A stretch of 64,000 bases of DNA from Candidatus Thorarchaeota archaeon (GCA_046482545.1 JAWOEX010000021.1:1-64000); one strand, 5' to 3'. Shown: positions 28,750-39,580, numbered from the stretch's first letter. Notes: generated by a model not told the origin, from the sequence alone. Numbers and translations are program-made.

Positions 28750-30822
28750 TTGTCCCACTTGTACAAGAAGTTCGTTCATGAAAGAGTAGCTCAATTAGTC
28801 AATAATATCGAAAATATTAGGAACTGCACTGTAATCGCGCATATTGATCATGGAAAGACGACCCTCACTGATTCCCTCATCGCGGCATCTGGTCTCCTGT
28901 CCAAGGAAGTAGCTGCTTCTGCCAAGCTACTCGATTATGATATGATTGAACAAGAACGAGGTATCACAATCAAGTCATCGGGCATCTCCCTTGTCCACGA
29001 AAAGGAAGATCAGGAATATCTTATCCATCTTGTCGATACCCCAGGTCATATTGACTTCTCCAGTCACGTCACACGGGGGCTTAGACTTACAGATGGGGCA
29101 ATTGTGGTAGTCGATGTCATCGAAGGTGTCATGGTTCAGACAGAGACAGTTACAAGGCAGGCCATAGAAGAAGCAGTTCGACCAATGTTGTTTGTGAACA
29201 AGATTGATCGACTAATCACAGAACGGAAATTGAACGCTGAACAGATTGCTGAAAAAATCAAAAAGGTTGTCACGGAATTCAATGCCATGTTAGGCAAATA
29301 TCTTGATGACAATCTATTGGAGCAATGGCAAGTCTCCTTTGCACGAAACTCTCTATGCGTAGGGTCTGCACTTGACAAGTGGGGTATCGGGATAGAGGTC
29401 CTCCGAAAAAGAGCTGGCAAGGGTGCTGATAAGAGGGCCATGGAAGAAGCATTTTTGGGCCTATTGAAAGAGATTGTAGATGCTTACAAATCTGGAGCTG
29501 AAGAGAATTTAACCAATGAATATCCAGTTGCACAAACGACTCTAGATTCCGTTGTTCAAGTTGTTCCAAATCCGAAAGAAGCACAGGAGTACAGAATGCC
29601 TAGAATCTGGGAAGGGCAACCTGATACGGAGTACGGAAGAAGCCTCTATGAGTGCAAGAAGGATGGGCCCTGTATTCTGGCTGTGAGTAATACCCAGAGG
29701 GATAGGCATGCCGGTCTTGTCGCGGCAGTACGCGTATTTTCAGGAGTACTGAAAGCTAGACAAGAACTGACGAACTTGCGGACAGGGGTGACAGAGAAAA
29801 CTCTCCGTACGGGACTTCTTATGTCGAAAACCCGTGTTGGATTGGATGAAGTTCCAGCTGGCAATCTCGCATTCGTAACCGGTATTGAACCGCTCTCCAT
29901 TGGAGACACGTTAGTTGAACCTAGCTACGAGGATGCTCAACCCATTAGTGAGCTTCAATATCCCACAGAACCTGTGGTTACATATACCATAGAACCCAAT
30001 GTCCTCTCCCAGTTGAGCGAAATCAAAGAACCGATTAGAGAATTTGTTGAAACTGACCCAGCCTTGAAATTTGAGGTGAATCCTGAAACAGGGGAAATGC
30101 TGCTATCAGGAGCAGGCGAACTACATGTCGAGATAAGCGTTGAAAAACTGGAACGTAAAGGGATTGGCGTTCGCTTAGGACAACCCATGGTTCTACTCAA
30201 AGAGCAATTAACCAAAGATGGCGAACCTGAGTCTGTCGAAGGAAAGGAATCTAGTTTATTCACAGTACAGGCAAAGTTGCTCCGAAAGGACGGCAGACCA
30301 GATGTTGATGGAGACATATTGGATGCCGACCCACAGTCCTTGTGTTATCTCGTAGATCAGACTAATCAGATTGAGCCACATAGCGAAGAAGCCGAATGGG
30401 TAATTGAGGGGTTCCGGACAGTCAAGCAAAGCGGACCAGTTCAGGGAGAACGAATGCGCCATCTTTTGGTATTGGTACAAGATGTTGAAATCAGATTTGA
30501 GAAGCCAGAAACGTCATGGCGAGATATCACACAACCAATGATACAAGCCATGCGAAAGAGTATCATGAGCGGTAATCCCGTAGTGCTTGAGCCATGGTTG
30601 CATCTCGAAATTACTGCCCCTGAGGGTTATGTTGGTGCACTGAGCAAAATTCTAGCAAAAAGAAAGGGAAAAATTCTAGAGATAGAATCAGAACGCCATC
30701 TTTACAAAATTGAAGCAGAAATACCGGTCAGAGAATCATTTGGGCTGGCTGATGAGATGAGGACTACAACATCAGGCTGGGCTACGTGGGGGGCAGAAAC
30801 CGGCGAATATAGAAGAATCTAA
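28750..30822 (+). CDS. Elongation factor 2 paralog (aEF-2p-like translational GTPase)
   Basis: AHIDHGKT, RGITI, DTPGH, NKID, GAGELH, LRT-like MRTTTSG; shortened domain IV lacking the HRG diphthamide motif. Confidence 0.88.
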   Translation: MSHLYKKFVHERVAQLVNNIENIRNCTVIAHIDHGKTTLTDSLIAASGLLSKEVAASAKLLDYDMIEQERGITIKSSGISLVHEKEDQEYLIHLVDTPGHIDFSSHVTRGLRLTDGAIVVVDVIEGVMVQTETVTRQAIEEAVRPMLFVNKIDRLITERKLNAEQIAEKIKKVVTEFNAMLGKYLDDNLLEQWQVSFARNSLCVGSALDKWGIGIEVLRKRAGKGADKRAMEEAFLGLLKEIVDAYKSGAEENLTNEYPVAQTTLDSVVQVVPNPKEAQEYRMPRIWEGQPDTEYGRSLYECKKDGPCILAVSNTQRDRHAGLVAAVRVFSGVLKARQELTNLRTGVTEKTLRTGLLMSKTRVGLDEVPAGNLAFVTGIEPLSIGDTLVEPSYEDAQPISELQYPTEPVVTYTIEPNVLSQLSEIKEPIREFVETDPALKFEVNPETGEMLLSGAGELHVEISVEKLERKGIGVRLGQPMVLLKEQLTKDGEPESVEGKESSLFTVQAKLLRKDGRPDVDGDILDADPQSLCYLVDQTNQIEPHSEEAEWVIEGFRTVKQSGPVQGERMRHLLVLVQDVEIRFEKPETSWRDITQPMIQAMRKSIMSGNPVVLEPWLHLEITAPEGYVGALSKILAKRKGKILEIESERHLYKIEAEIPVRESFGLADEMRTTTSGWATWGAETGEYRRI

Positions 30823-33116
30823 TTTCTCAGATAGTAGCGTTCGTTCATGACTCTCCCGAGCATCGCAAGGACCCGTCTGTCTGCCATTGATATTCGATCC
30901 ATCATTTGCAGTGCCCGAGAGAGGTTCGAAAATACTGCGTTGAGATATGGCTGTGCATGGACCGATTGCATCTTTTCGATTAGTTCGAGATATGATTCAG
31001 AAATTCGGATAAGCCCAATCCAATCTTCGGGAAGGAGAAAGTCATACTTGCCCGGTTTGATATCAAGTTTACCTCCTGCAGAACCTTGAATCACAGCACC
31101 ATATCCGCTTTCGAGAGCCTTCGAGAAACGTTCAAGCAATGCTGCGAGTGATTGAGTGGTACCTTTGATGAATGACTCCGAGCCATCATATTCTGGTTCA
31201 ATTGTCTGTACGATACTTAATTCTCTCGCAGCCTTTTGGAGACCCGTAGCTAGCTGAGAGTAATCTTTGTGTTCGTAGTATGTCTTCAGCGTATTTGCCA
31301 AAGCTGTCTGACCTTTCCAATACTGAGCCAAGAGAGCATCTGATTCCATTGTATGAGATTCAATTGGGTTCTTAATCTCGACCACTTTTTGACGACTTAG
31401 AATGTCCAGATTAATCTTGGCAGTTGCAGCTGCTTTCACCATATTAGCAGTTTTAGTAAGCTCAGGAATCCTGTTCGCAATGTTGTCCGCTCGCTCGTAT
31501 AGGGTTGTCCAAGATTTACTCACATATGGAACTGTAAGGGCCTCACCATGTATGAAAGGAGATTTGCTGGTTGCTCGAGGCTCTGATAGCATCATGTCTA
31601 TGTCGTCAAGAAGGCGTATCAATCGCTCAGGGAGATTAATATCATGCCTGAAGCTGAGCAATACAAGGTTGTAAACGGAGATAGCAACCTCAACAAAGCT
31701 TCTCGTATCAAAAGGAAAAAGCTGTATATATTCGAGGAGGGTTTCTCGAATCCGTTCGAGGGGTTCTTCTGAATCACTACCGAATATTCTTAGCTTTGAT
31801 AAAGCAAGACCCATTCGGGTGCCTAGCAGTACAATATCGGGAATCTTTCTGTCCTCGTGAAGTTGTTCTCTCGACTGCAGCGATTTTTCGAAGGATTCCA
31901 GACCGATTTTTCTGAATTCGTCCGAGTCGCAGGTAAGGGCAATCCACCCAATTGCGTTGTCACAGGCCGATTGTTCTGCCTTTGCCTTTGAACCGACTAT
32001 ATTCGTCTCATCTAGAAGTTCCTTCGCCCGCTTGAGATAAGCAATACCGTCAGAGATACAAGTTTCTTCATCAAACATACCGTGTGCAAAACCGAGGCTA
32101 CACAAGCACCTATACATCAGTTGTGATTGAGCCGGTGTTCGATTAGGAATACCTTCCAGCAAATTCAACGCTTTCTCTAACCGTTCTATCGCATCAGAAA
32201 TACCCGCCCTCCAGCCATTTACCAAGATACTTGAGCCGATAACAAGATATGCAAGAGCCAATCCATCCTTGTTTACTTCGTCGGTGTCGAGGATATTACC
32301 AAACATAGCCGCAGCTTTGTCTGCCAGCAATCGAGCTCTTTTGTGCTCAACCTCATCGTCCCGTGTTTCATTCATAGCAAGCTGGAGAGTAAGAGCTGCG
32401 AGCCTTATCGAATCCCCAGTAGCACGAATCCTTTCATCTAACTCATTGAGAATTTCTCGTGATTCATCATAAAGCCCCAATTCTGTAAGAACTCCCGCTT
32501 CATCCAAGGAAGCGTCACAATATAGCTGCTCCAATCCGAGATCATCAGCCATCTTCATTAATCGATTGAGAAGAGCCTCAGCGCCCTCGAAGAAGCCAGC
32601 CTCCACCAAGTAGGTGGTCAGTTGGTGAACTTCGTGAAGGGCAAGATGGGTAGATGGTTTGTGCTGTCGCGACGTGATAGCTTCCATCGTCTGCACCATT
32701 TCGTCAACCAAAAAAGGAACCAATGGACGAAGATTCAGTCCCAGCGCAAGGTCAATTCCATGCGATAGCTCGCCAAGAAGATCAAGAAAAACAGGAATAG
32801 CCTCTAAATCCGGCTCCAACTCAGTATCTGCCCGCCTAGCGCTGTGAGTATAACGTGTATCAAGAAGACTAAGCATCTGTGGAAGAGTGCGATCGTCTTC
32901 AAAAGCCAACTGAACAATGATTTCAGTCAATTTCGAATTCGCTACTTCTGGCCTTCGTAGGATTATCTCTTCGATTGCACGAGCAATATCAAAAGCAAGT
33001 TCCTCATCAACCGCCCCTCCAATTGCAAGGTTCTGAATTGCCGAGAGACTATCATCAAGAGACACCGTGGCACAAAGAACATCCCTCAGTGTTGCTTTTA
33101 ATCTGGTCTCCATCAT
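30819..33116 (-). CDS. Large alpha-helical TPR/solenoid-like protein
   Basis: 765 aa, Leu/Ala/Glu-rich, repeated A..L..LG...A..YL..A patterns, no TM. Confidence 0.65.
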   Translation of the reverse strand: MMETRLKATLRDVLCATVSLDDSLSAIQNLAIGGAVDEELAFDIARAIEEIILRRPEVANSKLTEIIVQLAFEDDRTLPQMLSLLDTRYTHSARRADTELEPDLEAIPVFLDLLGELSHGIDLALGLNLRPLVPFLVDEMVQTMEAITSRQHKPSTHLALHEVHQLTTYLVEAGFFEGAEALLNRLMKMADDLGLEQLYCDASLDEAGVLTELGLYDESREILNELDERIRATGDSIRLAALTLQLAMNETRDDEVEHKRARLLADKAAAMFGNILDTDEVNKDGLALAYLVIGSSILVNGWRAGISDAIERLEKALNLLEGIPNRTPAQSQLMYRCLCSLGFAHGMFDEETCISDGIAYLKRAKELLDETNIVGSKAKAEQSACDNAIGWIALTCDSDEFRKIGLESFEKSLQSREQLHEDRKIPDIVLLGTRMGLALSKLRIFGSDSEEPLERIRETLLEYIQLFPFDTRSFVEVAISVYNLVLLSFRHDINLPERLIRLLDDIDMMLSEPRATSKSPFIHGEALTVPYVSKSWTTLYERADNIANRIPELTKTANMVKAAATAKINLDILSRQKVVEIKNPIESHTMESDALLAQYWKGQTALANTLKTYYEHKDYSQLATGLQKAARELSIVQTIEPEYDGSESFIKGTTQSLAALLERFSKALESGYGAVIQGSAGGKLDIKPGKYDFLLPEDWIGLIRISESYLELIEKMQSVHAQPYLNAVFSNLSRALQMMDRISMADRRVLAMLGRVMNERYYLRN

Positions 33117-39407: not shown

Positions 39408-39580
39408 CTAGATACCTCGGATAAGAAAGAATAGCAATAGGATGATGAAGATAAGCCGGTCACAGTGGCAGCAGAAAGCATAGATAACTCACGTTGAATA
39501 CTGTCTAGCCTATTGTCAATACGCTTTAAGGGATGTAACAGCTCTTCTTGCTCATCACTCTCATCTTTACTATGAGACAT
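39408..39580 (-). pseudogene. Small coiled-coil plus C-terminal TM protein, frameshifted near 39455
   Basis: One added base after ...AATVTG gives LIFIILLLFFLIRGI* (57 aa). The uncorrected ORF runs to 39362. Confidence 0.45.

Follow-up and report, generated by a model that had tools for sequence, protein, structure and literature searches.

We analysed a 64,000-nucleotide stretch of DNA from a Candidatus Thorarchaeota archaeon (GCA_046482545.1 JAWOEX010000021.1:1-64000; hereafter the window), which forms the start of contig C26 in a 3.05-Mb genome (G000) that is 99% complete. Nine consecutive genes in the window encode two Rab-like GTPases (A and B), a roadblock/LC7 protein, a thioredoxin-fold protein, two KaiC-family ATPases, a TPR-type helical protein, a WD40 β-propeller and a HEAT-appendage protein that we call mini-adaptin. 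Our data suggest that this interval is probably a composite island with a KaiC/roadblock/Rab core, and not one machine. On this reading, the crystallised GTPase Thor-Rab, of which GTPase A is the orthologue, gains a fixed roadblock neighbour and a putative KaiC input that recurs across Asgard classes.

Layout of the locus

The original prediction, made from the DNA sequence, had read these genes as the parts list of an ancestral coat possibly under Kai-like control. We recovered its nine open reading frames (ORFs) at the places and on the strands that it gave:

30819-33116, minus strand: 765-aa all-helical TPR-type protein (ORF and structure model)
33190-33909, minus strand: KaiC2, a degenerate KaiC-family ATPase (PF06745, E 3e-30)
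33920-34666, minus strand: KaiC1, an intact single-domain KaiC-family ATPase, CI-like (PF06745, E 5e-72)
34663-34989, minus strand: CxxC thioredoxin/KaiB-like protein (Thioredoxin_3, E 1e-7; KaiB, E 2e-6)
35062-35448/57, minus strand: roadblock/LC7 protein (PF03259, 23.5 bits, at the cut-off)
35635-36189, plus strand: Rab-like GTPase A (7EZB, E 3e-82)
36208-37317, minus strand: WD40 β-propeller protein (PF00400, E 1e-56, five repeats called)
37521-38720, plus strand: mini-adaptin (HEAT-appendage), 399 aa (model and structural matches)
38740-39309, minus strand: Rab-like GTPase B (PF00071, E 1e-47)

The roadblock, thioredoxin, two KaiC and TPR genes form a minus-strand run with intergenic gaps of 72, -4, 10 and 73 bases, the stop of the thioredoxin gene overlapping the KaiC start. 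After this run the strands alternate, from GTPase A (plus) through WD40 (minus) and mini-adaptin (plus) to GTPase B (minus), which implies up to five transcription units and agrees with the earlier caveat that this is not one operon. The roadblock and GTPase A genes are divergent over 186 bp, as had been noted, if the roadblock ATG is taken at 35448. In Pfam, neither the 765-aa nor the 399-aa protein had a match above the cut-off.

KaiC genes are repeatedly linked to small GTPases

KaiC1 retains Walker A, the catalytic Glu-Glu and the arginine finger, and is 79% identical across genera. KaiC2 keeps Walker A and the arginine-finger motif, with the catalytic Glu-Glu replaced by Thr-Thr-Asp. The CxxC of the thioredoxin-fold protein was intact in 25 of 25 sequences; the KaiB model matched it at 27.7 bits, against a cut-off of 27, and thioredoxin models scored equally high or higher. 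A search confined to the locus proteins found no match to KaiA.

We examined 41 KaiC neighbourhoods outside Thorarchaeales. A small GTPase lay within three genes of KaiC in 8 of the 11 families of the Thorarchaeal KaiC lineage versus 2 of 17 for other KaiCs (Fisher p 0.003, in a sample whose families are kin and not independent). Linked families include Freyarchaeum, Jordarchaeales and Borrarchaeum, and within the lineage KaiC has a KaiB-like thioredoxin gene as its direct neighbour in five families and a roadblock gene in four. Among the other KaiCs, many have an Lrp gene as partner in place of a GTPase. The grouping of the lineage was supported at 96/96 in an alignment of 38 rows and at 88/87 in one of 45 rows. 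One Jordarchaeales run (L180:3507-7141, minus strand) contains a thioredoxin/KaiB-like gene, KaiC, a fusion of a dead KaiC to a GTPase, a roadblock and a second KaiC-like gene.

In many Asgard families, KaiCs of another clade are paired with an Lrp/AsnC regulator gene, and an Rqc2/NEMF-like gene often lies nearby (L151, L152, L153, L156, L157, L161, L166, L184 and L187). We did not see this clade in the Thorarchaeaceae genome studied here.

The same core was found in Thorarchaeales' other family, represented by a 96% complete genome (G025), where GTPase A, roadblock, thioredoxin, KaiC and KaiC lie on one strand and are followed by an EF-2 paralogue. Orthologues of the TPR, WD40 and mini-adaptin genes were not found in that genome, and a relative of GTPase B is on another contig. 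The Kai module, previously regarded as a possible controlling add-on, is the part most deeply tied to GTPase A and the roadblock.

Archaeal KaiC-like ATPases have been proposed as signalling hubs (Makarova 2017, as cited in PMC5847659). In the accessible literature we found no joint treatment of KaiC, small GTPases and Asgard archaea, although Makarova 2017 may already note a GTPase link. Relative to that literature, the recurring KaiC-GTPase linkage and the HEAT-hinge-ear layout described below are new; the parts themselves and the archaeal ear are already published.

GTPase A is the orthologue of Thor-Rab

GTPase A matched the crystallised Thor-Rab (7EZB) at E 3e-82, with the next match at 8e-40 and eukaryotic Rabs far below, and it falls within a supported Thorarchaeal clade of the Thor-Rab orthologous group. 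Thor-Rab carries an arginine in switch I that corresponds to MglA's intrinsic finger and that the paralogues of Thor-Rab lack; it has no prenylation cysteines (Tran et al. 2024, PMC10933270). We found the arginine in 21 of 21 GTPase A orthologues of other genera and in none of 19 GTPase B sequences. In the genome studied here, this intrinsic finger of MglA type is absent, and the genus-specific His in its place (35750-35755, plus strand) constitutes a natural variant. GTPase B is 74% identical across genera.

The roadblock adjoins GTPase A in nearly all loci and is co-oriented with it in G025. By analogy, it is a candidate MglB-type GTPase-activating protein (GAP) for its neighbour. Tran et al. 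2024 (PMC10933270) did not identify the roadblock neighbour or the KaiC run of Thor-Rab, did not mention KaiC, and found cognate roadblocks of Asgard GTPases hard to assign from genome layout.

Gene order is conserved at the level of the family background

The genes from TPR to GTPase B are collinear on one contig in 15 other Thorarchaeaceae genomes. Seven further genomes are consistent with this order up to their contig ends, and two are rearranged: one (G004) has no WD40 orthologue and keeps mini-adaptin, while the other (G005) has the island split between the roadblock and GTPase A, with GTPase A, WD40, mini-adaptin and GTPase B travelling as a unit. In all 11 adaptor-less loci, WD40 directly follows GTPase B in the same orientation.

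As a control for synteny, we compared 836 kb of two genomes of other genera (G011 and G021) with G000. Between 57 and 91% of adjacent orthologue pairs were also adjacent here, including most opposite-strand pairs, and mixed-strand syntenic blocks reached 42 genes. The locus itself lies inside a conserved block of 23-28 genes (C26 23860-50144/60409), and its flanks are kept equally well (ThyA, Lrp, acetyltransferase and the EF-2 paralogue on one side; PolB, LarC and CofE on the other). Since the synteny of the locus is at family background level, it is no evidence of shared function, and we rejected family-wide synteny as proof of function on this ground. Scattering of orthologues in related genomes had been named, together with a lack of pairwise interactions, as an outcome that would refute a coat; within Thorarchaeaceae they are not scattered, but the synteny equals the background and the cluster dissolves outside the family. 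More generally, conserved gene order in Thorarchaeaceae says little alone, and any argument from gene neighbourhood in these genomes calls for care. Such long blocks between genera, with C26 23860-177545 collinear over most of its length, are unusual among prokaryotes whose proteins share 45-75% identity.

These figures bear on a purely positional explanation, in which the genes, even the Kai run and GTPase A, have no functional links and neighbours are simply frozen by low rearrangement. The high background synteny fits it, as do the 22 small-GTPase and 12 roadblock matches in the whole genome, which are often clumped; moreover, Asgard GTPases are rarely in operons with roadblocks (Tran et al., PMC10933270). 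We nevertheless regard it as unlikely, given that KaiC-GTPase adjacency occurs in 8 families of several classes, with one fusion and no other shared neighbours, and that the adjacency persists while the strand arrangement varies between families.

Chance was also addressed within the genome. The genome has 3 WD40 genes and 2 ear genes, and none of 200,000 shuffles brought an ear gene together with a WD40 gene, a roadblock and two Rabs within five genes. Because random placement never reproduced the cluster, the clustering is real; because the gene families were picked after the fact, the test overstates it.

A proposed KaiC/roadblock/Rab switch with later additions

In the model that we favour, the old core would be the co-oriented run of roadblock, CxxC thioredoxin, active KaiC and dead KaiC, serving GTPase A. 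The KaiC pair would act as an ATP-driven switch, bound by the thioredoxin as a KaiB-like redox input, so that redox or ATP state would pass through a KaiC ring to the roadblock as output. The roadblock dimer would then work as an MglB-type GAP or guanine nucleotide exchange factor on GTPase A. We infer these interactions and activities, together with co-transcription of the run, from the genes and their arrangement. To this core, the TPR protein would have been added at the operon end as a family-specific scaffold. Further additions, confined to Thorarchaeaceae, would be GTPase B with WD40 and the HEAT-hinge-ear adaptor, which is dispensable and would have a transcription unit of its own; as with many other Thorarchaeal ears, its ear probably binds short peptide motifs. 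The right-hand genes (GTPase B, WD40 and, where present, mini-adaptin) may form a loose set of adaptors, and slow genome rearrangement in Thorarchaeaceae would hold the parts of the island in place.

Several observations weigh against this model. The locus parts cluster beyond chance, as the shuffles indicate. The position of the switch-I arginine in GTPase A is His in this genus and Thr in G025. In Thorarchaeaceae the genes of GTPase A and the roadblock point away from each other; in G005 GTPase A lies apart from the Kai run, and two other genomes (G003 and G018) carry insertions. Support for the KaiC clade drops under the starred threshold when more rows are included. The KaiC-adjacent GTPases of different families are not one resolved clade, some being Rag- or MglA-like; as their type varies by family, the link would be to a GTPase switch, not to one orthologue. 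Finally, the conserved basic N-helix of the adaptor and the WD40 tail could touch a membrane, so the right-hand genes are possibly linked to one another.

Metatranscriptome contigs from salt-lake runs gave scattered matches of 150-450 bases to most genes at at least 99%, uninformative on transcription, strand or operons. A scan for sigma-70 promoters and terminators stayed at chance level, sigma-70 being the wrong promoter type.

The TPR and WD40 proteins

The model of the 765-aa protein (predicted local distance difference test (pLDDT) 88.7) matched the TPR domains of LGN/Pins (Z 19.4), BtubC (18.7), Rap (17.6) and kinesin light chain, with further matches to Ctr9 and Ski3; an Atlas search agreed on TPR, and IFT-A and SNAP entries stood lower in the list. 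Clathrin, Sec31, Nup and the adaptin trunk were not among the top structural matches, an absence that is weak evidence. What had been called an α-solenoid is TPR-type according to all top matches listed, in a list that may lack some coat families. The protein was found in 22 of 24 Thorarchaeaceae genomes and in none of 16 others, profile search included. Its gene always directly follows the second KaiC, as the last of the co-oriented Kai run.

The WD40 protein comprises a propeller (about residues 1-298), seven-bladed as inferred from its length, and a conserved helical tail of about 70 residues with a polybasic end. The tail (36208-36420, minus strand) contains a near-invariant aromatic/Cys/basic C-terminal helix with a net charge of +3 to +11, a candidate membrane or partner contact. 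A predicted complex of WD40, GTPase B and GTP/Mg scored 0.15 against a mark of 0.32 and was counted for neither side.

The 399-aa protein is a model-based miniature adaptin

The model of the 399-aa protein, built from 11 orthologues (pLDDT 80.8), places a basic amphipathic N-helix before about three HEAT_2/alphaRep-type repeats (residues 47-137), a hinge (133-156) and a bilobed ear consisting of a β-sandwich (161-270) and an α/β platform (271-399). The hinge has pLDDT below 50, is variable in the alignment and is much shorter than eukaryotic hinges. A Foldseek search with this model returned COPI/AP-2 appendage entries at ranks 1-17, followed by BBS7/BBS9, with E 1e-10 for 9QPQ_H. The alpha-adaptin ear 1W80 aligned at Z 16.0 (root-mean-square deviation 4.1, 216 aligned residues), compared with Z 11.4 or less for the best unrelated single-domain matches, and sequence profiles gave a faint link of the ear to the beta-COP platform (E 0.05-0.1). 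The predicted structure thus bears out the appendage identity proposed earlier and identifies the protein as a miniature adaptin, with a short HEAT part, a hinge and a two-lobed ear. The N-helix was basic and amphipathic in 11 of 11 orthologues (mean moment 0.56, with no control run). This helix and the polybasic WD40 tail, both observed without a control, are the sole candidates for membrane contact.

Mini-adaptin is dispensable in Thorarchaeaceae. Its sequence is about 32% identical across genera, and 12 of 23 informative genomes carry it, while the other 11 have an intact junction of WD40 and GTPase B without it. The locus tree (FastTree, partial data, rooted on a long branch) calls for a minimum of two or three losses. 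In a wider sample, about 31 of 60 Thorarchaeaceae genomes carry it.

The archaeal ear domain forms 846 clusters at 50% identity. Among the best 149 homologues, 95 ears follow a predicted membrane helix, 8 follow HEAT repeats and about two-thirds terminate in a zinc ribbon; the ears that follow membrane helices are predicted cytoplasmic tails of surface proteins of up to 2,800 residues. Tails with an ear and zinc ribbon occur on large surface or small membrane proteins (L087:3341-10498, L088:3-3695, L086 and C26:259232-260689), and tandem arrays of ear genes occur in L089 and L090. In one family (f9), a soluble protein of about 610 aa combines a BBS-like propeller with an ear and zinc ribbon (L078:2710-4527, L079, L080 and L081); two genes for membrane proteins lie upstream of its gene. 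A conserved multi-zinc-ribbon protein of about 760 aa with a C-terminal ear is also encoded in many genomes of Thorarchaeales, G025 among them (L091:7039-9315 and L092:5425-7590), which we did not find in the genome studied here.

A second HEAT-hinge-ear protein, of 485 aa and ending in a zinc ribbon, was found in Borrarchaeum of the Sifarchaeia (L082:7767-9224, minus strand, L084 and L085). It has a weak Adaptin_N match (E 5e-4) upstream of a full ear. It aligns with the Thorarchaeal protein from the HEAT repeats to the ear (probability 98%), and in a tree with long branches the two form a group apart from other ears (92/86). Its gene lies next to ABCE1/RLI and a deaminase-like gene, and GTPase/longin-like genes follow at a distance of about 5 kb.

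Two reports (Makarova et al. 2024, 10.1101/2024.02.06.579148; Liu et al., 10.1101/2020.10.19.343400) describe IG and TBP-fold ear subdomains in Asgard archaea and Methanobacteriales, and place archaeal ears in the last archaeal ancestor. The ears described there are fused to Vps28-C, longin, GOLD and zinc ribbons, unlike the HEAT-hinge-ear layout, which is absent from the accessible literature on archaeal ears. Eme et al. 2023 noted no appendage downstream of Adaptin_N, a gap that a HEAT-hinge-ear protein in two Asgard classes fills. Such a protein shows how mobile archaeal parts can be assembled into the layout of an adaptin, by descent or convergence. We consider it improbable that the HEAT-hinge-ear proteins of Thorarchaeia and Borrarchaeum descend from a precursor of the adaptin/COP large subunits, and that the Thorarchaeal one forms a minimal GTP-dependent membrane adaptor with the neighbouring Rab-like GTPase and WD40, possibly gated by KaiC and the roadblock.

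Coat and adaptor readings

The original reading took the whole 9 kb as an ancestral coat, with propeller, solenoid, appendage and longin-type subunits recruited by GTPases under Kai-like control. Its parts list stands in so far as nine genes cover every fold type, much beyond what random placement gives, and the bilobed ear is real, with beta-COP and alpha-adaptin nearest; the order is kept on single contigs in at least 15 other genomes, and the published precursor model has propeller and solenoid genes in one Asgard cistron (PMC6141808). An ancestral coat, however, is very unlikely. The synteny is at background, there are up to five transcription units, and the solenoid best matches TPR superhelices and is restricted to Thorarchaeaceae. 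The HEAT part, about 90 residues long, is of prokaryotic alphaRep type, and the adaptor is dispensable, the remaining genes being normally present without it. We found no comparable coat-like gene set outside Thorarchaeaceae.

Eukaryotic coats are recruited by Arf/Sar proteins. GTPases A and B have no Arf-type N-terminal helix, their P-loop starting from residue 10-16, and no terminal Cys motif for lipid attachment (prenylation). The roadblock is no sigma/mu longin; a search of the whole genome with PF01217 gave no match, but the control likewise matched nowhere. The coat verdict removes a tempting false lead.

A narrower reading leaves out the TPR protein and the Kai genes: GTPase B (or A) would recruit WD40 and the optional mini-adaptin to the membrane, where they would use their own basic helices and the ear would then dock peptide motifs. 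The four-gene unit of G005, the co-oriented GTPase B and WD40 neighbours in all adaptor-less loci, the basic amphipathic N-helix, the charged WD40 tail and the adaptin-like order of trunk, hinge and ear all fit it. It is doubtful all the same: mini-adaptin is repeatedly lost and diverges strongly between genera, G004 lost WD40 and kept the adaptor, the HEAT-ear gene of Borrarchaeum has other neighbours, and amphipathic helices are common in helical proteins.

Neighbouring genes

A short (690-aa) EF-2 paralogue scoring under the aEF-2 cut-off (28750-30822, plus strand) meets the Kai run tail to tail, the two overlapping by 4 bases. It neighbours the two KaiC genes in G025 as well, a genome that lacks the TPR gene, so the Kai module might act on it. 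The 72-aa ORF at 39362-39580 (minus strand), previously taken as the right edge, has no counterpart at any related locus, even within the genus, and is therefore probably spurious. A small conserved gene whose family is not known (40223-40528, plus strand) always lies directly upstream of a PolB-like gene in Thorarchaeaceae.

Comparison with known systems

With the cyanobacterial KaiBC clock and the archaeal KaiC-likes that have KaiB-like thioredoxins (Makarova 2016, PMC4858521), the locus shares active and degenerate KaiC domains and a thioredoxin-fold partner gene. The clock has a double-domain CI-CII KaiC, whereas here there are two single-domain genes, the second without the catalytic Glu-Glu. 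The Kai set further differs from known Kai systems in the redox CxxC kept in the partner and in its roadblock/Rab output.

The locus resembles the protocoatomer model (Dacks and Field 2018, PMC6141808) in having genes for a propeller and a helical-repeat protein within 4 kb of each other. We saw no chain of an N-terminal propeller and a long solenoid, the WD40 tail being so short and the solenoid a separate gene; nor do propeller and solenoid share a cistron at any locus, as an opposite-strand GTPase and four Kai-run genes always lie between them.

We compared mini-adaptin with the AP/COPI large subunits (alpha/beta-adaptin and beta/gamma-COP; 1W80, 1E42, 9QPQ_H and 1R4X) and with the GAE and platform of BBS7/BBS9. 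It shares with the AP/COPI subunits the order of helical repeats, hinge, and ear with β-sandwich and platform, at 10-15% identity. Their Adaptin_N trunk has about 520-600 residues against about 90 in mini-adaptin. Unlike AP/COPI, the locus has no sigma/mu partner, its GTPase neighbours are Rab-like and not Arf, and the adaptor is dispensable.

With MglA/MglB of Myxococcus and Thermus, the locus shares a small GTPase gene beside a roadblock gene and, in most relatives of GTPase A, the switch-I arginine. It differs in that GTPase A is Rab-like, transcription is divergent here, KaiC ATPases are linked and the activity is predicted only. With Thor-Rab (PDB 7EZB/7EZD/7EZE), from which GTPase A of this genus differs by His in place of Arg37, it shares orthology and the absence of C-terminal prenylation cysteines.

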